Below, one piece after another: positions 20,775-42,292 of a DNA stretch of 64,000 nt (its first letter is position 1; each line of letters starts with the position of its first letter). The stretch is taken from the NCBI GenBank assembly GCA_963841735.1, contig CAWJDT010000001.1, positions 1-64,000 on the forward strand. The letters are read 5' to 3'. The notes below the pieces were generated by a model. The model saw only the letters and a program-made list of their open reading frames with translations, was not told where the DNA came from and ran no database searches. This DNA comes from an uncultured Actinomycetes bacterium (GTDB lineage: Bacteria > Actinomycetota > Thermoleophilia > RBG-16-64-13). The translations under genes were made by a program, and so were the position numbers.

Positions 20775-21028
20775 CCGCGCGTAGCCCCGTAGACCGTCAT
20801 GCGCGCGCCCCCCACTCCCAATCGGTCGTCTTGGACCCGATACAAGATGCGGTAGCCCCCCTGACGCACGCGGTACCGTTCCTCTCCCGTCAACTTCTCA
20901 CAGCCTGCCGGTCGTGGGTCCCCGGATAGCGCTGAGATGCGCTCGAGTATCCGCGCCAGGTCTCCCTTCGGGATCGCACGAAGATCCTTGTGAACTGTCT
21001 CACTGAAGAATATGCTATATGCGGCCAT
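20771..21028 (-). pseudogene. RelE/ParE toxin with its normal C-terminus replaced at a junction (~20821)
   Basis: DPRPAGCEKLTG..YRVRQGGYRILY, then aberrant tail with no VGHR...VYR. Confidence 0.75.
20797..20820 (-). repeat. Minimal stub of the R-M gene 3' end (WEWGARA*)
   Basis: 16-bp identity CGCCCCCCACTCCCAA with 38798-38813; stop codon at the same relative position as in WEWGANR*. Confidence 0.65.
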
Positions 21029-21248
21029 CGGCCTTCAGCCGCTTGACCATCTCCTCGTAGCTGATGAGCGGGTCACTTGCACGAGCCTCGAAGGCCTCGA
21101 GGTCGTCCGCGTCCTCAGCCAGAGAACCGCGGAGCGCATCATTCACCAAGTCCGAGATCGACCGAGTCGTTTCGGCCGACTTGAGCCGAAGAGCACGATG
21201 GATATCGGGGTCGAAGTACACCGTTGCTCTCTTCGTTAGCGTAGCCAT
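21015..21248 (-). CDS. CopG/RHH family antitoxin
   Basis: KRATVYFDPDIHRALRLKS...ISYEEMVKRLKADG. Confidence 0.88.
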   Translation of the reverse strand: MATLTKRATVYFDPDIHRALRLKSAETTRSISDLVNDALRGSLAEDADDLEAFEARASDPLISYEEMVKRLKADGRI

Positions 21249-21278
21249 GGCACACACCTCCTTTTCCGCAGCACCATA

Positions 21279-21306
21279 GCGTCTTGACGTTATGACGTCA
21301 AGACGC
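21279..21306. promoter_or_regulatory. Palindrome GCGTCTTGACGT-N4-ACGTCAAGACGC, likely RHH operator
   Basis: Directly upstream of the CopG antitoxin. Confidence 0.7.
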
Positions 21307-21336
21307 CGCGATCCTGACAACGGCCGCGAGGCCAAA

Positions 21337-21916
21337 CTACCTGACGCTGATCACACCCCGGCCCACGAGCTCGAAGAAGCAGCGCGCGCACGCGGCCACG
21401 TCCACGCCCGCATCGTGCGCACCGCCGAACAGCGTGCCGAATAGGAACATATGCAATTCGTCGAGCTTGGGCCACTTGTTGCCGTACGGCCCCGAGAGCC
21501 CGCAGTAGTCGGTGCTCTGGATCATGGTGCAGATCATGGACCTCGGAATGAACGGCGGCTGGAGCCCAAGGCGTATGTATTCGGCCGCGATCACACTGCC
21601 ATCGAACCCGGCGTTGTGTGCGACGACTACCTTGGCGTCGCCGGCCACCTGAGACAGCTCGGCGAGCACATCCGCAACCGGACTGCCCCTCGTTGAGCGC
21701 GCGCTCCATCGATATACCGTGGACGCGAAAGGCATCGGGCGGAATCCGAAATCCCTCGGGACGGATGATGCGAGTAGCAGACGAGCAGAGCTGATGTGAC
21801 TCGTCGTGGAAGGCCCAGGCGATCTGGATCGCGCGAGGCCAGTTTGCCAGGTCAGTGACCGGAGCCCGATAGTTGCGCGGAAGCCCATTGGTCTCGCAGT
21901 CGACGATGAGAAACAT
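21337..21916 (-). CDS. DEDDh (DnaQ-like) 3'-5' exonuclease, copy 1, with +1 frameshift near 21687
   Basis: IVDCETNG, VAHNAGFD, WPKLDELH, AHDAGVDV split over two frames. Confidence 0.85.
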
Positions 21917-22023
21917 GGCCCCCTCCCAACCTTAGTGTGCCTAGCGCTTCCGGTGCCGCCAGCGCTTGACGATCGTGGCCGCGCGCGGCTTACCGCGCGG
22001 CCGTGCGGCGCTTTGTTCTTAGC

Positions 22024-22521
22024 TCATGAGTATTTCATGTTGGACCTGTTGTCTCGCTGTTCCCTCAAAGCCTCGAGGTCTCTGCACATCGTTTCAAACT
22101 CGCTGTAGAGCCTCGGATTACCCCTTTTTGTTCGCACATACTTCACGTACGGCATGAACTTGTCTCTCATGTTCAGGAAATAGCTCCCTGACATCCGCTC
22201 GATGATGACCAAATCAAAAATGCCGATATTCACGCCCGCTGCTAGATGCTCAACAAGTGACAGGAACTCCTTGATATCACCTATGTCGTCAGGCTTGATT
22301 TCGTCGACGTTGATGACCTTCCCCTCTCCGAACTTGGCCACGATCTTGTTGGAGATAGGTCGATAGAGCGCACGTACACGATTGACATACTCAACGGTGG
22401 CCTGTTTCTCACGCCGTTCATGATCCGCTTTGAAGGTTCGATAGATCAGAAAGAGCTGCACCCACAGGGCGGATAATGTTGCAAGGGCGATAACGAGGGA
22501 TAGTGCTTGAAATGTTGTCAT
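22024..22521 (-). CDS. DUF4760-like membrane-anchored protein
   Basis: N-terminal TM; DHERREKQAT...EHLAAGVNIGIFD...LYSEFE; RBS AAGGAG. Confidence 0.7.
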   Translation of the reverse strand: MTTFQALSLVIALATLSALWVQLFLIYRTFKADHERREKQATVEYVNRVRALYRPISNKIVAKFGEGKVINVDEIKPDDIGDIKEFLSLVEHLAAGVNIGIFDLVIIERMSGSYFLNMRDKFMPYVKYVRTKRGNPRLYSEFETMCRDLEALREQRDNRSNMKYS

Positions 22522-22620
22522 CTGTCTCCTTCTCAGTGCGAACAGCGACCATGCAGTTTGCATGAGTCCATTACCCAACGCCACGACGTCTTCAGCTCAC
22601 CGGTTTCGAGCGCCATCATG

Positions 22621-22924
22621 CCCCCCTTCACCGCCAGACAGTTCGCATCAAGCTCAGGCTCCAAGAGCAGACTAGCCGCAATCCTCCGCGCCATCCGCGT
22701 GACCCCGCGCCAGTAGGCGACGCCGTTCAGATAGACGTCCACCGCCTGATCGCCCAGTTGAGCCAGAGCCTCCTCCGCGCTGAGGCCCAGGGCCTCAGCT
22801 CCTTGCCCGATGGCCGCCAGCTCTTCGGATGTCCAAGGTCTTGTATTTGCTTTTCCTTTGCCCGGCATGGTGATGCCCCCCTGGCCGGCATGACCCCAAC
22901 CGGCGGTGACGGCCAGATCGCCGG
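22621..22924 (-). repeat. R-M 3'-end copy D, with in-frame internal deletion
   Basis: GDLAVTAGWGHAGQGG...YWRG|VTRMARRI...LAVKG, near-identical to 38820-39238. Confidence 0.92.
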
Positions 22925-22954: not shown

Positions 22955-23382
22955 TCATCGCCAGCCTTCAAACCGAACCCAAGTGTTACCGGATTGGCCT
23001 TCTGCGCTGCGAGACACCACCGGCATGATAAACATGATGATCACTTCCACCGCTTCAGAGAGCTTTGCCGGCACTCGTATGTTCGAGGCCCCTCTCGGCT
23101 ACTGCCGTCGCGGGGTGATAGGTGAGGATCCTGGGGCAGGGCCCGCCTAACAGGGTCGGGTAATCGGCCCATTCTGGCTCGGGGACTGTGGCGTCGTCAA
23201 CGCCGACGTCCAACCGCAACACGAACTTGGCTCCGTCCAGATGACCGCCCGCTCGCGAACTCTGTCCTGGAGAGCCTCGCCAGGAACCCCTCGATGGCGT
23301 AGTACGGGAGCGCCTGCTGGAACTCCAGGCCCAGCTCGTGCGCCCGCCGTAGGAGACGACTCCTGACGCCGGCAGCGCTCAG
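22955..23382 (-). pseudogene. AbiEii nucleotidyltransferase toxin remnant with two internal deletions
   Basis: VRSRLL...YAIEGFLARLS / LDVGVDDATVPEPEWADYPTLL...TAVAE / C-terminal piece; NTase core missing. Confidence 0.75.
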
Positions 23383-23993
23383 AGCAGCGCCTCGAGGTAT
23401 GGACGTACGACGTCCGCCACTCGGTCTACCTTGGCGTATTGCATGATCTCAGCCGGAGTGGTCCGCTTCTCGCGGATCACCTCCTGCAGGGCCTCAAGGG
23501 CCACGTCCGTACCGATGCGGTTGCGGAACTTGAAGCAGTCGGCCACGGTCTTGGCGATACCGAAGACCTTCACAGGCGTGCCTCCCATCTCCCGGGACTC
23601 CACACCCGCTTCGAACGAGGCCGCACTCATATGGAAGACCCCCACCCGTGGTCGATCGATCTGGGGGGTCTTTGTCCCAAACGCCAGGGCGATCTGGACA
23701 TCAAAGGGTATCTGCGTACCTACTTCATGGAGGTCGAGCGCGCTGATGAGGCAAAGTGTCGCGTTGGGCACCCGGCGCATCACGGCTGCCACATCCGGCC
23801 GAGCCGGTAGTGGATGCGACGTCAGGTGGTAGACACCGCGGCTCAGCCACTCAAGGAGCCCTTGGTCGCGCATCCAGTACATCGTTCTCGCCTGCACGCC
23901 AAGTCTCAACGCCTCGGACGTGCGCATGATACCTCCATTGCGCTCGAAGGCCGCTGCTGCTTGCGATAGTGCTGTCTCAGTGGGTTGTCTCAT
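23379..23993 (-). CDS. Type IV TA antitoxin AbiEi
   Basis: GGIMRTSEALRLG...LSRGVY...CLISAL...AKTVADCFKFRNRIG. Confidence 0.9.
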   Translation of the reverse strand: MRQPTETALSQAAAAFERNGGIMRTSEALRLGVQARTMYWMRDQGLLEWLSRGVYHLTSHPLPARPDVAAVMRRVPNATLCLISALDLHEVGTQIPFDVQIALAFGTKTPQIDRPRVGVFHMSAASFEAGVESREMGGTPVKVFGIAKTVADCFKFRNRIGTDVALEALQEVIREKRTTPAEIMQYAKVDRVADVVRPYLEALL

Positions 23994-24067: not shown

Positions 24068-24216
24068 TGTCTCTGCGCACTCTAGCGCCTGTGCAGTCCC
24101 CGCGCCGTCCAACCAAGGTCGCAGGATGGCGAAGAGGTTGGGTATTCGGTCCGAGTCCGTATGCTAGAGACAGAACACGGGCGTCGGCTGGGCCGATGAG
24201 CTCGTGTTCTTGCTTT
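24068..24216 (+). ncRNA. Candidate small RNA ending in the shared terminator-like hairpin (copy 2)
   Basis: TCTAGCG/TGCTAGA closing stem, CGCCGTCC/GGATGGCG inner stem, hairpin 24172-24210 followed by T-rich run. Confidence 0.4.
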
Positions 24217-24601
24217 CCTCTGGCGCATACCCGCCCCGCGCGCCCTTGACTTTGGGAATCGGGCAGCCTACGCTTCTGTCGGAGGTTCGGCCCAGAGGCG
24301 GCTTTCGGGTGGCTTTGACGGCATTACCTCCTCTTCTATGCCCCACCCCGGTCAAGACTCGCCAGCTGGGCGTGCGCCGGTGTTCGGAGTGTAGGGCTTC
24401 CTGCGTCGGTCCATGCTCTTGCTTCTACGCAGGCTTGCTCCACGCTGCCGGTTTGTCGCCCGCTGATAAACATCGATAAACATGCTAAACCGGCAACAAT
24501 CCAACTGTCCACCACGGTGACGGCCACCTCGCTTTGATTCGCAGGCCGCCACAGTTGAGCGCGATCGGAGGACCAAGGCCTCGACGACCACATGGTGTGG
24601 C

Positions 24602-24707
24602 CCTTGCAACCCGTAGCCAGTAGGGGTACAGTGAAATTGAATCTGACCCCGAGCTAGACTCGGCAGTAGGATTCACCGGGCCCCCGACAAGGGGCCCTTC
24701 CTGTTGC
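24602..24707 (-). ncRNA. Structured element downstream of the DUF3800 gene (copy 1)
   Basis: GGGCCCC/GGGGCCC hairpin, TGAATC/GATTCA stem enclosing CCGAG/CTCGG; conserved second copy at 33936-34040. Confidence 0.6.
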
Positions 24708-25469
24708 CTAGAGACGAACAATTCCCTGCACATCCGATGTGCTGGCCACTTTGCACAAGACCGGGTCCAGACGGTCGAAGTAGTGTCGAGCGCCTTTTCT
24801 ATGGATATAGCCCGCTGCCTCGTGCTTCTGATAGAGGAAGTACGCGTTCACATCGGAGAGCTGGATGAAATAGGAATGCATTGAGTTTCTATGCACGGCA
24901 TCCTCGACCACCGTCTTGATGGGAAGCTGCCGATACCCACTGCCATCCATGTTCGGCACAGGGTTGTAGACGCGCAGCTGTCGCGTGAGCGTCCTGAGCT
25001 TGACCTCGTCAGTCTGATCCACGATCAAGACCCCGAAGTCATCGGCATTGCGGGGACCGGGGAAGTTCCCGTGGGAGTTCGTGTTTTCGAACCGTTGGAT
25101 AAGGGACCGCCACGCTGCCAGAAACACGTCGTAGTCCGCCGGTTTGCCCTGTTTGTCCACAATAACGTTCAGAATACTGACATCAGGCAGCGTGGCCTGC
25201 AGGTCGATCACGTCGCGGAGGAGCCTCAAGCGCATCGACTTGGCTATCCTCGCCAGATCCCCCGGCCTGTGGATGAAGTGACTGGCATGAATCTCGTCGC
25301 GCAGCTTCAAGCCGTAAGTCACCCGCGCGCCTCGCCGGAAGTCGATGATCCGCTGCAGTGTGTCGTGCCAGCGCAACTCATGGACTACAAACCCGCTAAG
25401 GGCGAAATAGCGACTCGATCCTGGCTTCGAGCCCACGTCGCCGCTCTCATCCACGTACAGCAGGTACAC
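24708..25469 (-). CDS. DUF3800 domain protein (RNase H-like)
   Basis: YLLYVDESGD, EIHA, IQLSDVNAY; GTG start after AGAGGTGG. Confidence 0.88.
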   Translation of the reverse strand: MYLLYVDESGDVGSKPGSSRYFALSGFVVHELRWHDTLQRIIDFRRGARVTYGLKLRDEIHASHFIHRPGDLARIAKSMRLRLLRDVIDLQATLPDVSILNVIVDKQGKPADYDVFLAAWRSLIQRFENTNSHGNFPGPRNADDFGVLIVDQTDEVKLRTLTRQLRVYNPVPNMDGSGYRQLPIKTVVEDAVHRNSMHSYFIQLSDVNAYFLYQKHEAAGYIHRKGARHYFDRLDPVLCKVASTSDVQGIVRL

Positions 25470-25573
25470 GGCGCCACCTCTCGACACTCGCGCGGTATTG
25501 CGCCCAATGATGGTTGCCGAGTTCGCTGCGCCCGACAATAGAACTTTGGGCCGACGTCGGCCGCGAGGCCACG

Positions 25574-26153
25574 CTACCTGACTCTGATCACGCCCCGGCG
25601 TTCAAGCTCGAAGAAGCAGCGCGCGCACGCGGCCACGTCCACGCCCGCATCGTGCGCACCGCCGAACAGCGTGCCGAATAGGAACATATGCAACTCGTCG
25701 AGCTTGGGCCACTTATTGCCATACGGCCCCGATAGCCTGCAGTAGTCGGTGCTCTGAGTCATGGTGCAGATCATCGAGCCCGGGACGAAAGGCGGTTTGA
25801 GCCCAAGGCGCAGGTATTCGGCCGCGATCACACTGCCATCGAAGTTGGCGTTGTGCGCGACGACCACCTCGGCGTTGTCGGCCACCTGAGAGAGCTCGGC
25901 GAGCACATCGGCAATCGGGCTGACCCTCGTTCAGCGCACGCTCCATGGATATCCCGTGCACGCGGACGGCGTCGGGCGGAATCCGAAATCCCTCGGGACG
26001 GATGATGCGAGTAGCCGATGAACAGAGCTGATGTGACTCGTCGTGGAAGGCCCAGGCGATCTGGATGGCGCGAGGCCAGTTTGCCAGGTCAGTGACCGGA
26101 GCCCGATAGTTGCGCGGAAGCCCGTTGGTCTCGCAATCGACGATGAGAAACAT
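25574..26153 (-). CDS. DEDDh (DnaQ-like) 3'-5' exonuclease, copy 2, with +1 frameshift near 25920
   Basis: Same 580-bp length and motifs as copy 1; many synonymous differences. Confidence 0.85.
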
Positions 26154-26211
26154 GACCCCCTCCCAGCCCTGGACACGTCGTGACACTCCCACCGGCACTC
26201 CGCGCCATGAA

Positions 26212-26934
26212 CTAGGCCACGCGCCTGGCTTCACGTGGCATCTGCTCCCAGATGTGGCCTTCCAGCGTCCGGCCGGCTGCCCTCTTGCGCACACCGCCCC
26301 AGTGCTTGAAGAAGAACGGCACACCTGCCCTAATGCACGCGTCGCGTACGGAACAAACCCACTCTTGCTGCAGCGGCCGCGCATGAGGGCCCGACTCGCC
26401 ACCGACTATCACCCAGCCGATCCCGTCCAGGCTCAAGTCCGGTAGTGGTCCGAGCAGTGGCTCAATCGACAGGAACTTCACCACCGAAGGGATCTCGCGG
26501 AGTCGTTCCACGCGGCTCAGGCGCTCATTGTCCTCTACGGTGACTCCCATCCAGACGTTTTCGGGCCACGGAAGCAGGGTGGCGACCTCCGCAAGCCGGT
26601 CTGCGCGCTTCGTCAGCAGTTGGTATGTGTGCCGGGGGGTGCGCTCCATCACCTCAAACACGCGCTTGATGAAGTCAACGGGCACCTCCTCATGGAACAG
26701 GTCGCCCATAGAGTTCACGAAGACCATCCGTGGCCTGGCCCATGAGAGCGGCACCTCGACCATATGCTCGTGCGTGCGCACGGCGAAGCCACCGCGATAG
26801 TTGGGCTGCCCCATTGCCTGGAGCCGTTTTGCCATTCGCTCCGCATAGCAGTTGAGGCAGCCTGGAGATACCTTGGAGCACCCCGTGACAGGGTTCCAAG
26901 TCGCCTCGGTCCACTCTATGGTCGTGGTGCTCAC
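26212..26934 (-). CDS. DUF5131 / phage Gp37-Gp68 family radical-SAM-like protein
   Basis: IEWTEATWNPVTGCSKVSPGCLNCYA, FVNSMGDLFH, WVIVGGESG. Confidence 0.92.
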   Translation of the reverse strand: MSTTTIEWTEATWNPVTGCSKVSPGCLNCYAERMAKRLQAMGQPNYRGGFAVRTHEHMVEVPLSWARPRMVFVNSMGDLFHEEVPVDFIKRVFEVMERTPRHTYQLLTKRADRLAEVATLLPWPENVWMGVTVEDNERLSRVERLREIPSVVKFLSIEPLLGPLPDLSLDGIGWVIVGGESGPHARPLQQEWVCSVRDACIRAGVPFFFKHWGGVRKRAAGRTLEGHIWEQMPREARRVA

Positions 26935-27152
26935 TACTGCCCCAAACCCTTCACCATGTGGTTTGCGATCCTGAGTGCGGTCTTCTGTGCTGCCCTCGCT
27001 CTGGCTGGAGACACCCACCAAGCCCTTGCTGCCGACGTCCAGTTTCTCGCCGCGTGGCAAACCTTTATGAACATGATAAACCTGTCGTGTTGCGAACAGC
27101 CCAGCGCGGAAATGCGAAGGCTGTGCGCTGAATACCTTTGGGGGCCACCTCC

Positions 27153-27181
27153 TTGACCGTGGCGGCGCGAGTGGCGATAAT
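27153..27181 (+). promoter_or_regulatory. Sigma70-like promoter TTGACC-N17-GATAAT
   Basis: Canonical spacing, with no plus-strand ORF of substance downstream. Confidence 0.55.
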
Positions 27182-27185
27182 CCCA

Positions 27186-27302
27186 TAAGCGACTAGAGAT
27201 GGAGACGCGTTGCGACTCCAACGGAGCCTCTGGGTTCCGCTCTAGACGCTGACACAGAACACGGGCGTCGGCTGGGCCGATGTGCTCGTGTTCTTTGTTT
27301 TG
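27186..27302 (+). ncRNA. Candidate small RNA (three-way junction + terminator), convergent with the PIN gene
   Basis: CTAGAG/CTCTAG closing stem, TGGAG/CTCCA and CGGAGCC/GGTTCCG hairpins, hairpin 27256-27294 + TTGTTTT. Confidence 0.5.
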
Positions 27303-27315: not shown

Positions 27316-27990
27316 CTACGTGTTCCTCCGGGTCCAAAGCACCAGGTCGTCGAATCCTCTTGTGGCAAGGATCTCCGGCCAGTGCAGGTTGCCCCGTTTC
27401 TCGCTGACTCGAGTGAAGTGTTCGATGCAGTTCATAAACACCGGCCTATGGCAGTCGTTCGCAGTCAGCACGGCGCGCCTTCGCTCCTGCTCGATGGAAC
27501 AATGCAGCTTCCAGGCGTCGCCTGGTGTGATCAGTCCGCAACTCGCCGCGGCGAGCATGGACGTGAGCATGTACACGAGGGACACTCCATGCTCCTTCGC
27601 CGCCTCGCGGCCCACATCATCGTCCATGACGGCCGTCCAACCGTATCGTCGGCATAGGGCGACCACTTCCGCCTCACCGCGATCCTTATCGTCCTTGCTG
27701 CCCCAACGTCTCCGAAGAGAGGCCACGAGCTGGATGTCCTCGATGTCGTCGACCGGGACCGAGAGCAGCCAGTCTGACTCTAGAATCGCTCTGTTCTCAG
27801 GGTGCCGTGGCAGGGCCGCCCGAAGCTCTTGCTCCATGATCACATTGGCTGTGAATACCCGCGGCCCGAACCAGTCTCCAAGTACCTCGAGGCGTCCCAC
27901 CCTGTTGAAATGAATGGGTACCATGGCGTCCAGGCAAACAAAGCCGGGCCCAGTGGAAAGCGCGACTATGTCTTTGCCTGAGCCCTCCAC
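27316..27990 (-). CDS. PIN-domain (DUF3368-like) toxin
   Basis: CLDAMV, GEAEVVAL, AVMDD acidic PIN motifs. Confidence 0.75.
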   Translation of the reverse strand: MEGSGKDIVALSTGPGFVCLDAMVPIHFNRVGRLEVLGDWFGPRVFTANVIMEQELRAALPRHPENRAILESDWLLSVPVDDIEDIQLVASLRRRWGSKDDKDRGEAEVVALCRRYGWTAVMDDDVGREAAKEHGVSLVYMLTSMLAAASCGLITPGDAWKLHCSIEQERRRAVLTANDCHRPVFMNCIEHFTRVSEKRGNLHWPEILATRGFDDLVLWTRRNT

Positions 27991-28799
27991 TATCCAAGCA
28001 GCTCCTTGACCGCCTCCGCATCGAAATCGGGGTCTTCCGGTCTCTCCATCCCCGCGTCGCTGACAGCGGCAAGCGCCTGCCTCACAGTCATGCCGAGCAG
28101 CTCAGCAAGACGTGCTTCGGATATGACACGCTCCTTGAAGAGTGTCATGGCTCCTCGAGCCAGCATCTCGGGCACCCCCGTGGGCGCCGGGAAGGCGGAG
28201 TCCTCGGCATAGCCCTGACTCCTCATCAGCCGCGCGATCTGCCCCTCCCCGTCCGCCAGGAGAGAGTCGAGAGTCTTCTGGTTGATCAGATCGGTATTGC
28301 GCAGACGGTACGCCAGAGCCTGGTACGACAGGCCGTATCGCCTCATGAGGCCCACGAGTCCCGTCGGAGTAGTCGGACCGCCGAGGGCCTTGACCGACTC
28401 GCGAAGGTCCTCCGTCGGAGCCAGCAGATAGGCAGCAAACGCGTTGGCGGCAACCTCACGCTCGTCGCCGTCGGCCATCACTTCCTCATCTGCGATCAGA
28501 ACATCAGCGGCCTCGAAACGATGCAGCTCGTGGTGTCCAAGTTCATGGGCCGCCGTGAAACGCTGGCGCGACGGACGCTTCGCGGAGTTGACCACAATGA
28601 GTGGAACCCCTGCGGCCTCGCTCCCCCTCCGCATGTACAGCCCGTCGCCGCCCGCCTCGCCGAAGTTGTGCAACGCGACGTGCACACCGCGTCTGCGAAG
28701 CACGTCCCAAACGTCGACCGGCGCGACGCCCAGGCCCAGCTCATGCCTAAGAGCGCGGGCCGCCCTCTCGCCCTGCATCCAAGGAGGCTCACCTTGCAT
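27990..28799 (-). CDS. ImmA/IrrE family metallopeptidase
   Basis: RQRFTAAHELGH, EVAANAFAA. Confidence 0.9.
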   Translation of the reverse strand: MQGEPPWMQGERAARALRHELGLGVAPVDVWDVLRRRGVHVALHNFGEAGGDGLYMRRGSEAAGVPLIVVNSAKRPSRQRFTAAHELGHHELHRFEAADVLIADEEVMADGDEREVAANAFAAYLLAPTEDLRESVKALGGPTTPTGLVGLMRRYGLSYQALAYRLRNTDLINQKTLDSLLADGEGQIARLMRSQGYAEDSAFPAPTGVPEMLARGAMTLFKERVISEARLAELLGMTVRQALAAVSDAGMERPEDPDFDAEAVKELLG

Positions 28800-28800
28800 G

Positions 28801-29133
28801 TCATCTGCCCTCGCGTAAGACGAAGTCTAGGTCGTCCTGAATCCGGCGACCCCATTCGATCATCGGCTTCATGGCCGCCACCGACCCATCACCAGCACGA
28901 GCATGCAGACTCTCGAAGCTGGCCGGCGCGAAGAACCGATCCATAGACACCTGCAGTTCCGTCGCTACCTTCCTCAGTACAAGGCTGTCGAGACCCCGTT
29001 CGCCGCGCTCGATGCGCGACAAGTACGATCCGCTGACTCCGATCGCCCCCGCAACATCCTCGAGCTTCTTCCCCAAGCGTTCGCGCTCCTCGCGTATGCG
29101 CCGACCAACTTGGACACCCCCTGCCTCCTCCAT
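28801..29133 (-). CDS. XRE-family HTH regulator
   Basis: VGRRIREER...LEDVAGAIGVSGSYLSRIERGER. Confidence 0.9.
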   Translation of the reverse strand: MEEAGGVQVGRRIREERERLGKKLEDVAGAIGVSGSYLSRIERGERGLDSLVLRKVATELQVSMDRFFAPASFESLHARAGDGSVAAMKPMIEWGRRIQDDLDFVLREGR

Positions 29134-29160
29134 GCCGTTGACCTCCGCTAGATTGGCAAC

Positions 29161-29189
29161 CAGTATAGCTACTTCTTGTCATCTTGGCA
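29161..29189 (-). promoter_or_regulatory. Promoter TTGCCA-N17-TATACT for the xre-immA-PIN operon
   Basis: Near-consensus boxes about 30 bp upstream of ATG 29133. Confidence 0.6.
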
Positions 29190-29283
29190 AGTGCAACGCA
29201 TCCTCAATCCCTGGAGTATCCAACCAAATGCGATACGCCGGCGCGACCACGGCATTGAGGTGCTGGCTCATCATCATGCCTGC

Positions 29284-29950: not shown

Positions 29951-29955
29951 CCGGG

Positions 29956-33915: not shown

Positions 33916-33935
33916 CCCCCACCCACGAATGTTGT

Positions 33936-34105
33936 CCTTGCAACCTGCAGCCACTGGGGGTACAGTGAACTTGAATCTGACCCTGGGCTAGACTCGGCAG
34001 TAGGATTCACCGGGCCCCCGAGAAGGGGCCCTTCCTTCGCCTAGAGACGAACAATCCCCTGTGCGTCCGCGGCGCTGGCCACTTTGCACAAGACCGGATC
34101 AAGAC
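33936..34105 (-). repeat. Second copy of the DUF3800 3' end (LDPVLCKVASAADAQGIVRL*) plus its downstream structured element
   Basis: Aligns with 24602-24772. Confidence 0.85.
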
Positions 34106-34124
34106 CGACGATGTATCCGGTGCC

Positions 34125-34200
34125 TTCACCCCAGGGGTGAACGACCACTTGACAAACTCCTCACATCAGGATACCCTTCACCTGAAGGGTGAAGGGTATC
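34125..34200 (+). promoter_or_regulatory. higBA promoter TTGACA-N17-TACCCT flanked by two TTCACC-N5-GGTGAA operators
   Basis: Operators at 34125-34141 and 34177-34193. Confidence 0.75.
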
Positions 34201-34221
34201 CTCAAAGTGCGGGAGACCCGG

Positions 34222-34515
34222 TTGCTTATCGAGTTCAAGACCAACAAGCTCAAGAAGTGCTTTGAGGACTCAAAGATGGGTCAACGCACCCTCGGCCCAG
34301 AAGTAGCCCGGAAGTACATCCAACGGATCCAACTTATCCAGCAGACCCATGACATCGACGAACTAGTGTCCCTACCAGGCCTGCGCTGCCACCCACTTGC
34401 CGGTGACCGCGAGGGCCAGCATGCAATCACACTGACCGGGTTCTATCGACTGATAGTCACAATCGAAGATGGAGTGGTCACGATACAGGAGGTCAGCAAG
34501 CACTATGGCGACTAG
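34222..34515 (+). CDS. higB: HigB (RelE-like) toxin
   Basis: IEFKTNKLKK...PGLRCHPLAGDREGQHAI...YRLI...SKHYGD. Confidence 0.85.
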   Translation: MLIEFKTNKLKKCFEDSKMGQRTLGPEVARKYIQRIQLIQQTHDIDELVSLPGLRCHPLAGDREGQHAITLTGFYRLIVTIEDGVVTIQEVSKHYGD

Positions 34516-35608
34516 GGAGGAGATCCATTCCGATCTGGCCGTTCCGCCCGGGGAATACCTCTCCGAGGTGTTGGATGACCTTGACATGTCCCAGGCCGAT
34601 CTGGCTCGACGTATGGGCAGACCCGCTCAGGCCATCAACGAAATAGTCAAGGGCACCAAGGCGCTCACCCCCGAGACGGCTCTGCAGCTAGAGCACGTGG
34701 TCGGTGTGCCCGCTCACATTTGGCTGGGGCTGGAGGCTGAGTATCGCCTCACTCTTGCGCGGCAAACAGAGTCGGCGGAGGTCGACAAGGAGACCCAGCT
34801 GCTCGAGGCCTTTCCATACAAACAGATGGCGGAACTGGCGTGCGTGGCCCCGGTCCGCAAAGCTCAGGACAAGGTGCGAGAGCTGCGGCGGTTCTTCGGC
34901 GTCGCCTCGCTGGCGCAGCTCGGACAACAGCCTGCCTACGCTCCAGCCTTTCGAGTCGGCGGCGGTGCTCGTCAACCTTCGGAGTACGGACTGGCCGCTT
35001 GGCTGCACTGCGGACACGTGCAGGCCCAAGCGACAGAGGTCGCGTCGTTCAGCGAGACGGCTCTTCGGGCTTCCATTCCTGAACTGAGAAGACTGACCAT
35101 GGCCCCGGCAGCGGAGGTGGCCTCCGCGCTACGCGTCCGCCTTGCTGATTGCGGGATCGTCTTCGCGCTATTCCCGCACTTCCCGAAGACCTACGCGCAG
35201 GGTGCGACGTTCTGGGTTACGCCGCGACAGAAGGCGGTGGTCCTGTCGAGCATCAGGGGCAAGTGGGCCGACATCTTCTGGTTCTCGCTGTTCCACGAGC
35301 TGGGTCACCTGCTCCTGCATGGCAACGCGACCTTCGTCGAAGTCGAAGGCGGGCAAGGCACGCGCGATTCCGCCGAGGAAGAAGCCGACTCCTTCGCCCG
35401 CGATGCCCTCATCCCAGCGGCTGATTTTGCAGCATTCGCCGGGACACTGGACTTCGGCCCCGGCGCCATCACCAATTTCGCGTCAGCGATGGAGATACAT
35501 CCCGGAGTGGTGGTCGGACGCCTGCAGCACGAGCAGCTGCTGCCGGTCAACCAGGGCATCCAACTCCGGGAGCGCTACGAGTTTGGGGCGGGTGCGGCGG
35601 CGGCGTAG
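34505..35608 (+). CDS. higA: HigA antitoxin fused to an ImmA/IrrE peptidase domain
   Basis: PPGEYL...MSQADLA...W(L)GLE; FWFSLFHELGH, EEEADSFA. Confidence 0.88.
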   Translation: MATREEIHSDLAVPPGEYLSEVLDDLDMSQADLARRMGRPAQAINEIVKGTKALTPETALQLEHVVGVPAHIWLGLEAEYRLTLARQTESAEVDKETQLLEAFPYKQMAELACVAPVRKAQDKVRELRRFFGVASLAQLGQQPAYAPAFRVGGGARQPSEYGLAAWLHCGHVQAQATEVASFSETALRASIPELRRLTMAPAAEVASALRVRLADCGIVFALFPHFPKTYAQGATFWVTPRQKAVVLSSIRGKWADIFWFSLFHELGHLLLHGNATFVEVEGGQGTRDSAEEEADSFARDALIPAADFAAFAGTLDFGPGAITNFASAMEIHPGVVVGRLQHEQLLPVNQGIQLRERYEFGAGAAAA

Positions 35609-35661: not shown

Positions 35662-37830
35662 TCAGGTCTTCGACATCTCCCTGTAGTGATCTAGGTAACC
35701 AGTCTTCTCGAACACCAAGCGCAGGCCCTCGCGAAACGTGTCGTAGTCGAACTCCTTCATGTCCAGGATGTTCTGCCCGAGAGAGTGAGACTCCCGGTTC
35801 ACGTAGCGACAAAACGCTTGGTACTTCGTGGCCTGCAATTCGGGCATCTGAAACACGTTGTTGAGGTCCTTTCTCCTCACGAAGTTGAAGAAGTACTCGA
35901 CTACGTTTCTCATGCAATTGGCGAGCAAGGCTGGCGGTTGGCAGGGGTCATTGATGATGGCCCAGTAAGCCTGATAGTCGTTCTGGATGTCTTCGTAAGC
36001 CATTCCAACGATTTGGCTGCCCGCGGAGTTCTTCGTCATCCGAAACAGCTTCTGATCTCTGCTTCGTCTATCGCGATTCGCGTCCGTCAACTCGTAGAAG
36101 AAGTACAAGCTGTGCGTCAGCACAAAGACTTGAGAAAAACGGTCCGACGAGAAGAAGGAACGCCGCAACAGTTGACCCACGTTGAAGACATAGACATGCG
36201 ACAGACTCGAAATCGGGTCATCAATGACCGCCACGCGACGAAGCCCCGTGTCCTCAACGCTTTGCCGCCCCTTACACAGCTCGCAGAAATACAGGAAGCT
36301 GATGATCATCTTCTCGCCCTCGCTCAGACTCCGGAAAGAAACGTCAGAATCATCCTGACGTGCTATCCGGTAAAGGGTCTCGGAGTGCTTGGTGATCGCG
36401 AAATCCTCAATACCCAAGTCGAGCAACGCAGCGTTGATGTTGCCCACGGCCTGGTCAGTATTTACCGTTTCCCGCTGAGCTGACGCGATAATCCGTCTCT
36501 GCTCCTCAACCTGCTCCTCAAACCGGGTCTTCTTATCTTCAAGCGCCTTTGTCTTGTCGTCCGACTCTTCCCGGTCCTGCAAATATCGGGAAACGGTTTG
36601 GTCGTACTGCCATCTCATCAGTTCCCAGAATTGGGCCTTTACGACATTGAGGGCGTCATCTCTGTGTCGAATCTTCTCCTGGTGCTGCCTGATTTGTTCG
36701 TTGGCACGGCTCAAGGCCTCACTAAGAGCATGAATGCTGGGCTTTGTGTTCTCAAGCTCCACCACCATGCTGGGGGTCGCCACCTTTGCCTGAAGCTTCC
36801 GAAGGTTCGCCTCCAGCTGTCGGGCACATTCGAGATGAAGCTTCGCGATCTCCGCAGAACAATCGAGCACGAGAGAGTATTCGCCGAGTTCTGGCGCGCC
36901 TCCCATGTTCGTGATGGCAGTTCGATAGGACTCTTCCAGCCCGCTGAGCGTCGATACGTCTTCCATGTATGAGTCGTCGAAGTACTGAGCGATGCTCTGC
37001 AACAGAGCGGGGGTTATTGTCTTCTCCTGGCAGAAGGGGCATGGGCTCCCCGCTTCGCCCGCGTCCTCGGGAACGTAACGTAGCCCCTCCCTCACCCAAT
37101 CCGAGTTCTCAAGCTTCTTGATTAGACCGGATACCGCACTGTCGTCGCTACCGACGATCGCCTTGGCAAGCAAAGGGTTGGATTCAACCGCGTGTTCGCA
37201 AAAAGCGAACTCCGTCAATTCGGCCAAGTCTTGCGCGGACACATCCTTGAGTGCTTCAACGTCCTTCTTGAGTTGTTCAATTGTTGTCTCAGGCTTCTCT
37301 GCCGGCTTCGTGAGCGACAAGACATGTGAAAGCAGCTTGTCCTTCTGAGCCTTGAACCCTTCGAGGCAGAACTCAAGCACGCGGTCGCCACCGCAGTGGT
37401 TCGTCTTGATCTCCCAGGTCTGCTCCATAGCCAGGGTTATCTTCTTGCCGAAGGCGGCCTTGGCCTCGTTTGTCTCCTGCGCGTTGGCGGCAAGAGCCTC
37501 TTGCAGAGCCCTAAGTTCCTGCTCAGCTCTGGATATCTTCTCCTCTGCCGCCTTGTTCTCTCTCGAAAGGCTGAATATCCCCTTGAGACTGTCAGACTCG
37601 TAGAAGTGATCTTGGACAAATCTCTGGTTGTACACCATCACAGCATCTGTCGTGTCTTGGGTCATTCGGCAATCTGCGAATCTCGCGTCACCACACCTGT
37701 AGAGGAAATCAGAGACTGTGGACTTCCCGGTGCCGTTCAGACCGTAGATTAGATTGACCTTCTTGTCAGTCACGAGGGAGGCCGTCGCACGGAAGCTGGC
37801 AACATTCGACATGTGTATCTCAGTAATCAC
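35662..37830 (-). CDS. RloC-like ABC ATPase / HEPN anticodon nuclease (AAA_13)
   Basis: GLNGTGKS, zinc hook CPFCQ, LSEGE, IDDPISSL, NCMRNVVEYF...NRESH. Confidence 0.85.
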   Translation of the reverse strand: MITEIHMSNVASFRATASLVTDKKVNLIYGLNGTGKSTVSDFLYRCGDARFADCRMTQDTTDAVMVYNQRFVQDHFYESDSLKGIFSLSRENKAAEEKISRAEQELRALQEALAANAQETNEAKAAFGKKITLAMEQTWEIKTNHCGGDRVLEFCLEGFKAQKDKLLSHVLSLTKPAEKPETTIEQLKKDVEALKDVSAQDLAELTEFAFCEHAVESNPLLAKAIVGSDDSAVSGLIKKLENSDWVREGLRYVPEDAGEAGSPCPFCQEKTITPALLQSIAQYFDDSYMEDVSTLSGLEESYRTAITNMGGAPELGEYSLVLDCSAEIAKLHLECARQLEANLRKLQAKVATPSMVVELENTKPSIHALSEALSRANEQIRQHQEKIRHRDDALNVVKAQFWELMRWQYDQTVSRYLQDREESDDKTKALEDKKTRFEEQVEEQRRIIASAQRETVNTDQAVGNINAALLDLGIEDFAITKHSETLYRIARQDDSDVSFRSLSEGEKMIISFLYFCELCKGRQSVEDTGLRRVAVIDDPISSLSHVYVFNVGQLLRRSFFSSDRFSQVFVLTHSLYFFYELTDANRDRRSRDQKLFRMTKNSAGSQIVGMAYEDIQNDYQAYWAIINDPCQPPALLANCMRNVVEYFFNFVRRKDLNNVFQMPELQATKYQAFCRYVNRESHSLGQNILDMKEFDYDTFREGLRLVFEKTGYLDHYREMSKT

Positions 37831-37867
37831 AAGGGCTCACTCATCGATATTTACACGCGTCCGCATG

Positions 37868-38713
37868 TTACCTGAGTACCGCGGCGAGGTCATTCACCGC
37901 GGCTTGGACCACCAGCCAGCCGATACCGCACGTGTCCGCATCAGGGAAGGTCTTCAGAGTCCACTGCTGATAGGGGTGGATGAGGTTGCGGAACTCCCGC
38001 AGCGCGTGTGAGAACTTTTTGACGTCGAGTCCGATCCACCCGCACTCATGCGCGACGTTGATCATGTCTGAGAGCGACCAATCAGCGAAGTGCTTAACCT
38101 TGCAGGAACCATGATCTGTGGGAGCAGAAGGGCAGATATTGGCCTGCTGCGGATGCTTCTGAAACACGGCGAGCAGGAGCCCCTCAAGGAGCGACCCCAT
38201 CAGTATCGTTGCCGCAAGAAACGATCCGGAGTTCACACATGTCTGCGTCTCGGTCCACCGGTTCGCAAGTACTGCACCAAGACTAGGCTCGAGCGACAAT
38301 GCCAAGAAGTCCGGAGGCGGAAGTGGCACGAGTTCCGGCTCTCTCTCAGGCTCTTCCTGAAACGAAGGGGTCACTTTGACGAGTGCTGGTTGGACGCCGT
38401 CGAGCTTCACTCCCAGACCCTCTAGCAGAAGAATCTGGTTGAGCCTGGCAACCGCCTGAAGCGTAAGGTGCTTGTCGCCTTGGTATTCGTGAGGGTCCGC
38501 CAGGCGGCAGATAACCGCTTTGAGGTTGTTCTCAGTCAGCTGATCAAGAACACCTAGGGTCCACCACTTCCTGGTTGAGCCGTCATGGGCGAAGTTCGAG
38601 AACCCGACATTGTGGAAGAACTCCGTGAGTTCGTGACCTTTGCGGTACTTCGGGTGGTCCGGAGAATCCCCACAGATCAGGCCAGCAAGTGATACTAGTG
38701 TCTGATGATCCAT
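37868..38713 (-). CDS. Hypothetical protein, AbiJ-N-like domain + HEPN-like C-terminus
   Basis: LICGD...YRKGHELTEFF...HDGSTRKWW; GSLLEGLL, FRNLIHP (RxxxxH-like). Confidence 0.65.
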   Translation of the reverse strand: MDHQTLVSLAGLICGDSPDHPKYRKGHELTEFFHNVGFSNFAHDGSTRKWWTLGVLDQLTENNLKAVICRLADPHEYQGDKHLTLQAVARLNQILLLEGLGVKLDGVQPALVKVTPSFQEEPEREPELVPLPPPDFLALSLEPSLGAVLANRWTETQTCVNSGSFLAATILMGSLLEGLLLAVFQKHPQQANICPSAPTDHGSCKVKHFADWSLSDMINVAHECGWIGLDVKKFSHALREFRNLIHPYQQWTLKTFPDADTCGIGWLVVQAAVNDLAAVLR

Positions 38714-38788
38714 CCCACCCCCGGTCGACGACAACAAGCGCCGCACGCCCGGCACTGCTCTCTTTCGCGACGCCCAGATGCCTTCATG

Positions 38789-41700
38789 TCACCGATTCGC
38801 CCCCCACTCCCAAGTCGCCCCCTTCGCCGCCAGATAATTCGCATCCAGCTCCGGCTGCAGCAAGAGAATAGCCGCGATCCTCCGGGCCATGCGCGTGACC
38901 TCGCGCGCCTCCTCCGCCTTGAGGTCCCGCCCCAGCAGCGCCTTCTCCCGATAGCTCAGCCACTTCTTCATCACCTGATATCCGCCGATGGTGTAGTTCC
39001 ACACCCCCGCCGGCACCCCGCGCCAGTAGGCGACGCCGTTCAGATAGACGTCCACCGCCTCATCCCCCAGTTGAGCCAGCGCCTCCTCTGCGCTGAGGCC
39101 CAGAGCCTCAGCTCCTTGCCCGATGGCCGCCAGCTCTTCGGATGTCCAAGGTCTTGTATTCGCTCTTTCCTTTGCCCGGCATGGTGACGCCCCCCTGGCC
39201 GGCATGACCCCAACCGGCGGTGACGGCCAGATCGCCGGTGCCCTCGTTCAGATTGCCCCCGCCCACCCGCGAGGCCACGCCGATCACCTTGAGCTCCGGA
39301 CGCAGGCTGCCGGTGGTGACCCCGTCGACCTCGGTCTCGGGATCGAGCAGGTCGGCCACCTTGCGGCCCAGCTCGGCCGAGGCGAGGAGCAGCTCCTTGC
39401 TGTCGGGGAGCGGGATGCGGGGCCAGTCGAGACGAAGACCGTCGGCGTTCTCGGATAAATATGCCGGCGAGTAGCCAATTGAAAGCGAGTGAAGCCAGAC
39501 GATGTTGGGTTCATCTTCCCCGCCGCCCACAGCGCAACCTAGTCTCTTGAGATAGCCCCGGGCCCCCGGCGACGCGTTCGGACCGTTCTGAGCCTCTGCG
39601 TTGTCAGCCAGACCAAAGAGGTCGATTGGTCCATGCTCGGCGCGACGCACAGCAGGAAAGCACATGCTCGCCGACCTTATGAGGTGCATGTCTGGCAGGC
39701 ATCGGGTCACGTAGAAGGGTGTGCCTTCCCAATGACGCTCGGCCTTCTGTCGAGATGTAAGGAAGAGATTGCCCGGAGCATACTCAGCGAACAAATCTGA
39801 ACGCTTCTCATCAAGAAGCTTTGTCTCCGCGTGCCAGTAGACATACCGGTCGTCAAAGGGACGGTAGGCCGTCCTCGCGAAAGTGCCGCTCTCAACACCG
39901 CGGCCTTGCAGGTAGTGGCGAGTCTGTACTGGATCGAACCGGGCGACAGGCGTCATCAGCGCAGACAGCTGACCGGCAACCTCCTGGTCGCTGACCCCAG
40001 GGTCGAAGTAGTGCGACATCCGCTTCGTCAGGGTTTCGAGTTCGATGTCCACCAGATCAGAGTCTCTGCTCGTCTTCACTCCGGGCGAAAAGACAGGCAT
40101 CAGTTCGGTCAAGAGGGGCCACAAGAAGTACTCAGTTGATGAGGACGAAGGAAAGAACGGGATTCCCAGTTCTGGAGCAGGCGTGACTGATTGATAAGAG
40201 GCCTGGTCCGCAGCGGCAGACAAGAGTTCGTCTTTCTTGTTCACGCCCCAAAAATGTCGGAAGGACACTGAGTCGCCCCCGCCAGCACGACCTGTGCGCG
40301 TCAAGAGAGAAACCGCCGTGCCGACCTGGATTCCCTCGCGGTTGTGCGGGGTGGAGAACACGCTGGGGTCGGGCTTCCCCTCGGGCGTCAGCTTTCCCGT
40401 CTTGAAGGCGTCACCGTTCAGACAATCGATCCAAATCTTGTCGAACACCTCTAAATAGTGCTCGCGCATGCCGGTGAACGATAGACCGTCGAGCCAAGAG
40501 TAATTGGAGATGAAGCAGACGATGCCCCGTTTCGTTCCCTCAACGATCTTGCGCTCGGCCATGCGAAGGAACCGCACGTATAGGTCGTTCAGTCCTCGGC
40601 CAACAGGCGCCGGCGCCTTCTTCGTCGTGCGGTAGGCGTCGGTCAGGCCCCGCTCTTCGGCGGTCGCCATCCCTGCGTAGCCGTTATAGGGCGGATTACC
40701 CAGCACCACCAAGATGGGCAGGTCCTGTTTCACATGTTCCGCGGCGTCGCGCTCCTGCTCCAGCTCCGGCAGGCCCAGCACCTGTTGGTGGCCGTGGGGC
40801 GATTCCCAGCCGGTGAGGGCGTTGGTCAGAAACACTCCCACCCGTTCGTTCTCCTCCAGGGGCAGGTGCATATTCTGGAGCAGCAGACCCAACTGCATGT
40901 GCGCTATGACAAAAGGAGCGGGCAAGATTTCAAAGCCAAAGACGCGTTTCATGGCCGCCTTCTTGACCTCGCCCGCCACCAGGGCGTCGGCCCCCTTCTC
41001 GTCCAGGGTCTGGCTGATGCGCTCCAGCACCTCCACCAGATAGGCGCCGGTGCCGCAGCAGGGGTCCAGCACGTACACGTTGGGGTCGGCCAGGCCGTCG
41101 GGCACGCCCAACTCCTCGCGCAGCACCGTGTCCACGCGGGCCACCATGTACTCCACGATCTCCGGCGGCGTGTACCACACCCCCAGCTCCTTGCGCAGCT
41201 CGGGGTCGAACGCCTCCAGGAAGGGCTCGTAGAAATACTGGACGGCGTGATGCTTCTCGAATTTGCTGAAGAATGCTCGTCTATCTACCCGGTTGAGCGC
41301 CGCGGCCGCCAGATTCAGAACCGGCACCAGCCCCAGCGAGCCCAACCGGCTGGGAGTGGCGATCTGCTCGAAGAGGGCTTTGACCACGGGCACGCGCAGC
41401 GTCCAGGCGGCTTGGCGCCACTCGAAATGGGCGCCGTCGGTGTCGCGCCGCGGGCCGTGCCGGTGCCGCTGGGCTCGTGCTCGTGACTCCACAAGACCCA
41501 GGAGGCGAACAGGCCGTAGAAGAGGGTCTGCACCAGAGTCGAACGGAAAAAGTGCTCTCCCTTTGCCCCCTCGAACTTGACACCCAGAGTCTCTTCCATA
41601 GACCTGCGCACCGCGTCCAGCGCCGGCAGCTCGGCCGACTCGACCAGGAAGCGGGCCTCCCGCGCGTAGGAAGCCAGGAACCAGGCCAGATCTTGCGGGG

Positions 41701-42292
41701 TCGCGAGCGTGGCTCCGGAGAGCAGCACCCGCTTGAGAAACTCCAGGAAGCGGGCGCCCTGCTCCTTCTCGGCGTTGCGGGGATGGTTGGCCAGGGTCCA
41801 GAACTCGGCTTCGGTGGGCGCTAGCGTGTAGCTCTCGAGGGTGACCGGCTTGCCGTGCTCGTCGAGGCCCAGCAGCAGAAACTCGCGTAGGGTGGTGACC
41901 AGCACCTGCCGGTAGGCGTCCAGGTAGCCGAGCACCTGAGGCGACGCCGCCACGGTGGCGGCGTCGTGGCTGGGTGGCTTGACCTCGATGGCGCCGCGCG
42001 CGGGCTTCTGGCCGCCGAGGGCATCCAGACCCGGTGGCACGCCGGCGACCGCGCCGCCCGCGCCTTTGGCCCCTCGCGACCCGCGCAGCTGATCGGCAGT
42101 GAACAGCCCGCCGTCGGGCAGACCGGCGCCGTGGTTCTTGAGGTTCATGAGGCAGCGGACCTTGGGCTTCAGCCCTCCGCCGACTTCCTCCAGCAGTTGC
42201 CGCAGCGCAGGGTAGTACGAAAGCTCCGAGACGCCCTCACCCGCAAGCCGTATATCGCGCACATCGCTTAGGAAGTTCTCAAGGATCCCCAA
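38789..42292 (-). CDS. Type IIG/ISP-like single-polypeptide restriction-modification enzyme (N6-adenine MTase); frameshifts near 41445 and 39165, probably assembly errors
   Basis: PDGG...AIEVK nuclease, YTPPEIV, VLDPCCGTG (motif I), GNPPY (motif IV), WPRIPL, IGGYQVMKKWL; no helicase motifs seen. Confidence 0.9.

Follow-up and report, generated by a model that had tools for sequence, protein, structure and literature searches.

Repeated 3' ends of a type IIG restriction-modification gene

The window analysed here, the first 64 kb of contig C1 (CAWJDT010000001.1) of an uncultured Actinomycetes bacterium, contains a type IIG restriction-modification (R-M) gene followed by a row of further copies of its conserved 3' end, each trailed by different defence or toxin-antitoxin genes. 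The source genome (G000; G-numbers designate the genomes compared) is a metagenome-assembled genome (MAG) of 2.82 Mb in 8 contigs, 89.7% complete. The copies were located by blastn self-comparison of the window and by repeat finding, and positions within the R-M 3' end are given on a q scale, on which q1 corresponds to window position 39700 and the stop codon to q910-912. All copies are direct repeats on the minus strand. Copy A (38802..39288), the repeated 3' region of the parent gene itself, is composed of a "block" (~q460-775) and a "tail" (~q775-900). The other copies are 5'-truncated orphans, and their tails remain homologous up to the stop codon; the last ~45 codons of the repeated end are homologous in every copy. 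In the full genome, the repeat occurs at four places only (A, B, C, and D), with no further copy.

Orphan B (33430..33915) starts at q413 and is 91.8% identical to copy A over 487 nt. It lies in an open 196-aa frame (33420-34010), the stop codon of which overlaps an ATG (ATGA). Orphan C (31502..31932), which starts at q466, shares 91.7% identity with A and 93.2% with B, and is interrupted by a TAG codon at 31675-31673. Its end overlaps the GTG start codon of the following DUF4238 gene (31494), an arrangement already noticed in the initial annotation. Orphan D (22619..22924) starts at q463, behind the 3' end of a degraded AbiEii gene, and matches the parent in two segments, with 96.4% identity to A over 224 nt (22702-22924) and 78-82% for 22619-22710. 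It has lost 117 nt, in frame, between GGCGCG..GGT microhomologies. The most distant copy, stub E (20797..20821), comprises the last 16 nt of the R-M frame and a TGA. The exact match covers 16 nt (20806-20821), or 25 nt with the stop codon, and none is expected in 100 shuffles. Its TGA stands at the same offset as the parental stop codon, a ParE frame loses its usual C-terminus exactly there, and the stop codon overlaps the ATG of an FtsX-like permease gene. We therefore read the stub as a genuine relic, as the initial annotation did, while the clear 24-bp copy described there does not stand. That annotation, made by a model from the DNA alone, had also described B, C, and D as direct repeats of the parental 3' end, with decay rising with distance from the gene, and the self-comparison agrees on both points: the lengths fall from 487 to 432, ~313, and 16 nt, while the frame is open in B, interrupted in C, internally deleted in D, and reduced to a stub in E.

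The parent gene

The parent R-M gene (38789..42292, minus strand) was identified by Pfam, PADLOC, and tblastn matches as a single-chain enzyme gene and is full length, with methyltransferase and specificity parts and a putative nuclease part. It matches Pfam N6_Mtase, Eco57I, MmeI_Mtase, and Type_ISP_C, and the PADLOC model REase_MTase_IIG is matched by all three pieces in which the gene is read (best E 5e-72). The methyltransferase is of the gamma-type N6-adenine class, with DPCCGTG and NPPY seen in the translation. Among solved chains, 7lo5_A is nearest (E 4e-29), with LlaGI and LlaBIII next. The putative N-terminal nuclease part matches positions 67-223 of the REase_MTase_IIG profile at an E value of only 1e-4 and contains the stretch PDGGLF...IEVKPP, which may be a PD-(D/E)xK-type nuclease motif.

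The gene, described as intact in the initial annotation, is complete in length and does not form one uninterrupted reading frame. A tblastn comparison with the intact orthologue of G005 reads it in frames 3/2/3 of the assembly, with a first frameshift within 41432-41471 and a second, one extra base within 39159-39170, that is absent from B, C, and D. In the window, the specificity domain (Type_ISP_C) is divided between two frames. G012 and G017, like G000, have a split gene, whereas both gene and specificity domain are intact in G005, G019, G024, and G038.

Compared with its relatives at the DNA level, the gene falls into three parts: a conserved N-terminal and methyltransferase part (42292-40300), a variable target-recognition part (39450..40300) with no DNA similarity to the relatives, and a conserved end of ~660 nt (39450-38790). 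No orphan reaches the variable part. Contigs from two sediment sequencing runs skip ~1365 nt of the gene (joint 39428->40794) with both sides kept, hence these relatives hold a different specificity region between the same conserved parts, which indicates recognition-domain swapping in this R-M gene.

Two further related sequences lie in the same genome. A second gene on contig C5 (102435-103075) shares 77% DNA identity with the N-terminal 640 nt of the parent, without a match to the parental C-terminal end. The relic of a second, more distant type IIG gene is located at window 7752-8536. Here ~210 N-terminal residues (…PDFRI…GYIEAKKP…) run straight into a C-terminal tail of ~50 residues (…YQAGGYQVCEKWLKDR…) in another frame, and the methyltransferase and specificity parts are missing through an internal deletion. 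A Phd antitoxin gene (8655-8930) and a RelE/ParE-like frame (8931-9233) follow this relic.

Orphan ends in related genomes

The C-terminal 164 residues of the parent were used to search 60 relatives and 61 genomes covering the whole family, most of them MAGs, with E<=1e-14 as the threshold for membership. The R-M gene family is present in ~19 genomes, and orphan 3' fragments occur in at least 12 of them. Three orphans each were found in G000, G005, G035, and G075, four in G006, and one each in G012, G015, G017, and G071; G026, G073, and G032 have an orphan without a full gene. The gene stands without orphans in G011, G019, G022, G024, and G034, and two genomes (G008 and G079) are ambiguous. 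In the seven arrays that were fetched, all 15 orphans share the orientation of the gene or of each other.

The locus is common to four genomes of one genus. The IMPDH gene (15534-17015, plus strand, in the window) forms the distal flank in G000, G005, G006, and G011, and a FitA-like RHH/PIN pair together with a GYF_2 protein and RecO (42454..45595) forms the proximal flank, with FitA/PIN and RecO common to G000, G005, and G011. Between these flanks the island measures 6.5 kb in G011, which has no orphan, 11.4 kb in G005 with three orphans, and 21.8 kb in G000. The distance between the last orphan and IMPDH is 226 nt in G005 and 12 nt in G006. Orphan lengths fall with distance from the gene in G006 (450, 345, 234, and 107 nt), as they do in the window, and show no monotonic fall in G005 (197, ~290, and 140 nt). 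Thus the flanks are conserved while cargo and copy number (0-4) differ from genome to genome, in line with the initial proposal, and an invariant single-copy neighbourhood was not seen. The single 3' copy of G011 at this locus belongs to a different species with different cargo, and is no true empty site.

Outside the family the array pattern is rare in our sample. Among the best 80 genome-contig loci, 52 have at least 5 kb downstream, and an extra fragment was present in 4 of these 52, one being G005 itself. Two of the best 80 metagenome loci, many on short contigs, have an extra fragment. An exact 35-nt word from the block gave 0 matches in metagenome contigs, and a protein-guided metagenome scan returned only 3 loci at >=80% identity, all <=4.1 kb and none with a second copy. 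The only sequencing runs found to match the genome do so for 0.05-0.06 of the sampled words, and their contigs represent relatives at 90-99% identity; among the contigs listed, none spans 39159-39170. A contig of one independent run (X1) joins the flank of a DUF3800 gene to the R-M block at q308, and the same type of junction is present in G012.

These recurrences argue against an assembly artefact in which strain haplotypes had been strung together. The source genome is a MAG in 8 contigs, and reads of its own sample are lacking, which leaves this explanation some room. However, many assemblies made independently show the same architecture, among them that of G038, a genome in 2 contigs from another family, and short-read assemblies break at the repeat, as seen in G006, G015, and G079, where a contig ends in the R-M 3' end. 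In addition, the copies differ by 4-9% and have unique flanks each, and the DUF3800-flank-to-block junction recurs in the unrelated run. We thus regard an artefact as extremely improbable.

Boundaries of the orphans

The 17 orphan 5' boundaries are located at q306, 318, 379, 413, 423, 427, 435, 462, 463, 464, 466, 490, 503, 513, 659, 701, and 763. Eleven lie within q413-513, and all 17 orphans stop short of the variable specificity region. This distribution bears on the idea that the orphans are remains of whole paralogous R-M genes, which arrived in tandem islands with a gene each and then suffered large deletions. R-M genes are indeed often inactivated here (the three split genes mentioned above), and the relic at 7752-8536 demonstrates an internal deletion in another type IIG gene. 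Yet specificity-region or methyltransferase sequence is retained by 0 of the 17 orphans, the orientation is single, and the boundaries are concentrated in one interval of the gene, so that such an origin appears very unlikely.

Four of the 17 boundaries fall within 5 nt (q462-466) behind unrelated upstream flanks, a hint of a preferred breakpoint. The starts of C and D belong to this group and lie inside the left arm of an ACCGGCG-N13-CGCCGGT inverted repeat, whose proximity had been pointed out in the initial annotation. The inverted repeat was rejected as a conserved structure: its arms are not kept in G005, G006, G011, G017, and G034, and no compensatory changes were found among the genomes compared, so that the role first hinted at for it is not supported. 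The boundary of D can also be read differently. The same adjacency of AbiEii and an orphan occurs in G006, G015, and G026, with boundaries at q427, 435, and 503, and a common adjacency with differing boundaries suggests that the D boundary arose by later erosion of an inherited junction.

A shared breakpoint would fit site-specific accretion, in which islands lacking an integrase carry replacement ends and are inserted by a recombinase encoded elsewhere that acts on a core site in the R-M 3' end. The genome has 8 matches to the tyrosine recombinase family PF00589 outside the window, and the architecture of gene, new end plus cargo, and old end is the same as in stacked islands. Nevertheless, the other 13 boundaries spread over q306-q763, the repeats measure 100-600 nt with variable switch points (q775-840) and no short common core, the inverted repeat is not conserved among the genomes, and the boundary of D may be a product of later nibbling. 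Moreover, the window ORFs (open reading frames) have no integrase or transposase family match anywhere, as the initial annotation had stated, and the window contains no tRNA and no Rfam match. The nearest PF00589 match on contig C1 is ~750 kb off. ORFs between the copies were also scanned in five arrays (G005, G006, G012, G017, and G038; single-orphan loci not counted), and no recombinase family was found there, nor was an integrase or transposase match found on a 7.8-kb contig of G035 with two orphans. Site-specific accretion is accordingly held to be quite unlikely.

Mosaic structure of the copies

The copies in the window are 94-98% alike over the first ~300 nt and only 75-84% over the last ~130 nt. 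The transition is not at one position: A equals B to ~q775 and B equals C to ~q840, so that the switch points are nested. Within q780-839, B and C agree at 56 of 60 positions, compared with 45/60 for A and B and 47/60 for A and C. The full gene of G012 and its orphan agree to ~q820 and show the same mosaic pattern. Nested switch points are predicted by a series of tail replacements with different crossovers.

The phylogenies of the two segments differ. Copies covering less than 70-75% of a segment were left out, leaving 21 of 29 copies in the block tree and 23 of 29, without orphan D, in the tail tree. The block tree groups the copies by genome, with support of 86/85 for A-D of G000 and 98/96 for the G012 pair, whereas in the tail tree the tails of G000 and G012 interleave and are not grouped by genome. 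For tail pairs in the window, the ratio of non-synonymous to synonymous change (dN/dS) is 0.13-0.45, at a proportion of synonymous differences (pS) of 0.27-0.51. Third positions account for 0.43-0.62 of the tail differences, similar to the 0.47-0.70 of full-gene pairs. The similar third-position share and the low dN/dS together suggest that the tail differences mostly arose in working genes.

Cargo and further repeats of the island

Behind copy A, a 295-aa protein and a 722-aa AAA_13 ATPase are encoded (35662..38755, minus strand). The ATPase matches PADLOC PDC-S06 (E 1e-250) and has a weak match to PrrC, so that its first label, "RloC", has partial backing at most. The 295-aa protein, first labelled AbiJ/HEPN, has no Pfam, NCBIfam, or PADLOC match, and only an Atlas lead points to DUF4145/AbiJ_NTD5 clusters. 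Its kinship with the Abi_C/HEPN_AbiV proteins behind orphans of G012 and G035 was considered and dropped, as the comparison gave no similarity. Next behind A, on the plus strand, profile matches identify a HigB-like toxin and a HigA-type HTH/M78 peptidase protein resembling PD-Lambda-2_B (34189..35608).

Directly upstream of B, the 3' end of a DUF3800 gene survives as a relic together with ~110 nt more (33930..34115, minus strand), 87% identical to 24596-24782. Behind B, a putative toxin, an MqsA antitoxin, and a SecB-like chaperone matching PD-T4-9_C are encoded on the plus strand (32073..33355). In the earlier label "MqsRA-SecB", MqsA and SecB are thus retained, while the putative toxin called MqsR has no family match. 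The unit behind C (27316..31494, minus strand) comprises genes for DUF4238, NYN (HEC-09), HTH, M78 peptidase, and PDC-S70-like proteins, by profile matches. Its last three genes are common to G011, where they stand behind the single full-length R-M gene (77% over 1.9 kb).

Further units, recognised from repeats and profiles, follow at 24167..27300 (minus strand): an R3 hairpin (27251-27295), DUF5131, a frameshifted DEDDh gene, DUF3800, an R2 copy (24596-24782), and a second R3 hairpin (24167-24211). AbiEi and degraded AbiEii genes, matched in PADLOC, come next (23091..23993, minus strand), with the AbiEii-to-orphan junction common to the three genomes named above. By profile matches, the unit behind D (20771..22584, minus strand) encodes DUF4760, an intact DEDDh exonuclease-like protein, an RHH antitoxin, and a C-terminally truncated ParE. 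An ABC/sulfatase/FtsX operon (17712-20774, minus strand), of low G+C content (55-58%) and present only here, lies behind E. Taken together, several cargo genes match the PADLOC PDC models PDC-S06, PDC-S70, and PDC-M41B/M30B. Behind A, C, D, and E, the first cargo gene begins 0-35 nt from the stop codon of the copy.

Three more repeat families are confined to this island: R1 (21321-21931/25558-26168, 91%), R2 (24596-24782/33930-34115, 87%), and R3 (24167-24211/27251-27295, 96%). R3 is a 45-nt hairpin followed by a T-rich run and occurs nowhere else in the genome. In G024 the R3 sequence is located 76 nt behind the R-M stop codon, hence each R3 copy may mark the former site of an R-M end. The DEDDh exonuclease-like gene is present twice (21290-21916 and 25558-26168, 91% identical), the distal copy being intact and the proximal one frameshifted; it has a weak PADLOC match to "cas-associated DEDDh" and a homologue of 85-86% identity in G012. 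At the proximal flank, the protein between the PIN gene and RecO (475 aa, 43363-44790) has an N-terminal GYF_2 domain only, with no other family match.

In three cases, the same cargo is found downstream of an orphan in one genome and downstream of the full gene in a different one. First, the R3 hairpin and AbiE stand behind the full gene in G024, and an AbiEi remnant stands behind the gene of G017. In the window, R3 and AbiE come after a flank (24265-24344) which, in G012 and in the metagenome contig of run X1, stands before an orphan; this points to the probable loss of an orphan between 24265 and 24211. Second, Fic is found behind the full gene in G012 and behind an orphan in G015. Third, the first 140-220 nt downstream of the full genes of G022 and G035 match those downstream of the orphan G035_2.

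The genes enclosed in relatives are not always of defence type. In G006 (contig C3, L018 9095-19892), ~11 kb of ordinary-looking genes lie between two orphans, including two UPF0261 genes, an M24 peptidase, an epimerase, and a branched-chain amino-acid ABC transporter. Non-defence genes can thus become enclosed, by the process itself or by a later rearrangement. In G005 alone (L017 6839-7519), the gene directly behind the intact R-M gene has a T5orf172/MUG113 domain, which we take to be GIY-YIG-like; a nuclease of this kind could have promoted break-induced insertion.

Probable serial insertion at the R-M 3' end

The initial annotation had proposed that the R-M 3' end acts as a recombination anchor for a polar array. 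This agrees with the fall of orphan lengths in the window and in G006 and with the nested mosaic. On the observed array, its polarity, the nested mosaic, the allelic tails in this genome, the recurrence in relatives, and the lack of recombinase-family matches in the five scanned arrays, we base the reading that we consider reasonably probable: serial insertion at the R-M 3' end through homologous exchange in the conserved block of ~300 nt, with the old end and its neighbours displaced distally. The target would be one place, the conserved last ~500 nt of the type IIG R-M gene. Incoming DNA, composed of an R-M tail and new cargo, would exchange with the resident gene by RecA-type homologous recombination in the block. 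The gene would keep a complete frame, now with the tail of the newcomer, whose cargo would stand behind it, while the former 3' end would be left behind the insert as a 5'-truncated orphan along with the genes that once followed it. Repetition would line the orphans up in a polar array, in which age increases with distance from the gene. They would later decay through nonsense codons, microhomology deletions, and nibbling at their 5' junctions, and the likeness of the blocks within a genome could be kept by the duplication itself or by gene conversion. The duplication of the block might proceed by single-crossover integration of a circularised fragment, by a double crossover with a donor already carrying an orphan, or by one homologous and one illegitimate end. 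Ku was not found in the genome (89.7% complete) and ComEC, a common gene, is present; neither gives a decision on the insertion route.

Several observations weigh against serial exchange as a complete account. The orphan tails of G005 and G038 group with the resident gene in the tail tree, and the G035 tails fall in a wider clade with those of G022. The G038 orphan, 95.6% identical over 158 nt with a third-position share of 0.36, that is, with differences even over the codon positions, looks like a recent neutral copy of the resident end. Hence the distinct donor alleles suggested in the initial annotation are supported in the window and not in G005 and G038. For these two genomes (with G035 in the wider clade), plain duplication of the resident end appears to fit better than capture of a foreign tail. 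Furthermore, cassettes occur in either orientation, MqsRA being opposite to the R-M gene in the window and in the same direction in G035, which is not expected from simple homology-driven transfer of whole units. The breakpoint shared by four orphans at q462-466 is a further adverse point. No near-identical genome pair with and without one unit was found among the genomes and runs searched, so that the duplication step is unobserved. Finally, the relatives are kin, and the genome counts are therefore not independent.

The tails of G005 and G038 bring in the alternative of plain insertion with long target duplication throughout, in which the cargo arrives alone, the resident 3' end is duplicated, and tail differences appear later through orphan decay and allelic replacement of the live tail. 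The G005 orphan tails are each 91% identical to the gene and 83% to each other, a star-like pattern, and the even differences of the G038 orphan point the same way. Insertions of this type that lack mobility genes are described in passages of Furuta et al. (2010, PMC2853133), where a stop codon is often included in the repeats. In the window, however, even orphan-orphan pairs have dN/dS of 0.36-0.45 and a third-position excess, and the nested agreement of B and C against A requires a tail replacement at each step. As the sole process, plain duplication is therefore rated unlikely, with a real minority chance. Returning to homologous exchange, two variants seem to coexist: the tail would arrive with the cargo in the window and in G012, while the resident end would simply be duplicated in G005 and G038.

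A bolder extension, which we put forward only as a tentative and rather doubtful possibility, is that units dock at the block by homology, which would make it a cassette platform similar to an integron but lacking an integrase. If so, recombination could loop out any unit flanked by two copies of the block, the unit could move between strains and be taken up again by any genome that carries the gene, and the R-M gene would be both a defence gene and a common address for trading defence and toxin-antitoxin cassettes. Recombination between the direct repeats would delete cargo irreversibly, and a regulated switch is not indicated; for the dedicated system that the initial annotation had put forward as a candidate, or for reversible cargo switching, nothing was found in support.

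Comparison with known systems

The arrays of orphans that follow the toxin genes cdiA, rhs, and maf are reportedly known by the term "C-terminal displacement". The present locus resembles Rhs/CDI (contact-dependent inhibition) arrays in having a full gene followed by same-strand, 5'-truncated copies that retain part of the conserved region. It differs in that the orphans have no distinct toxic C-terminal domain with an immunity gene each. Unlike in cdiA/rhs/maf loci, the variable unit consists of whole, mutually unrelated downstream genes (toxin-antitoxin pairs, Abi genes, nucleases, and an ABC operon), and it is a DNA-modifying enzyme whose conserved end is repeated. According to passages of Poole et al. 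(2011, PMC3150448), cdiA/rhs orphans are same-strand 5'-truncated fragments behind the full gene, with a varying length of conserved sequence before divergence. Modules that are orphans in one genome occur elsewhere as part of the full gene, and recombination between gene and orphan can delete the DNA between them and load the orphan onto the gene (same source).

Insertion with long target duplication, as set out in parts of Furuta, Abe and Kobayashi (2010, PMC2853133), involves an insert without mobility genes, direct repeats of >30 bp, and a link to R-M loci; the target gene survives where the repeats span a stop codon, as they often do. The inserts in the window likewise lack mobility genes. 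In those cases R-M genes are what is inserted, each time in a single event, whereas here the R-M gene is the target, the events are serial at one site, and the repeats measure 100-600 nt. In addition, the tails of the window repeats differ as alleles do, while the repeats of G038 and G005 do behave as copies of one resident sequence.

A row of repeated gene 3' ends with different cargo in between is also the appearance of stacked islands at tRNA or ssrA genes. The ssrA islands of Dehalococcoides are said to be stacked at ssrA by site-specific integrases. Such islands are characterised by an integrase gene and by short repeats whose extent is fixed; neither was found here. Defence-island hotspots lie between core genes, and systems can be embedded in R-M loci (the PADLOC "PDC" candidates). 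Variable defence cargo between conserved flanks is shared with these hotspots. In the hotspot descriptions surveyed, there is no mention, at the level of their abstracts, of rows of orphan ends of an anchor gene as a footprint, and a literature search, covering mostly abstracts, gave no account in which cargo insertions are marked by rows of orphan R-M gene ends. By comparison with these systems, the best-supported view is that the locus combines the displacement logic of cdiA/rhs with the footprint of insertion with long target duplication.

Implications for defence islands

The locus bears on the question of how defence islands gain and shuffle genes without visible mobile-element machinery. 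The island would form a legible record, in which each orphan marks a past insertion, the order gives the relative age, and the mosaic gives the crossover points. If the reading of serial exchange holds, orphan ends of anchor genes could be used in MAGs to locate cargo boundaries and, with them, candidates for new defence genes. The address for cargo capture would then be a conserved part of a defence gene itself, and the displacement logic of polymorphic toxin loci would extend to whole neighbouring genes.

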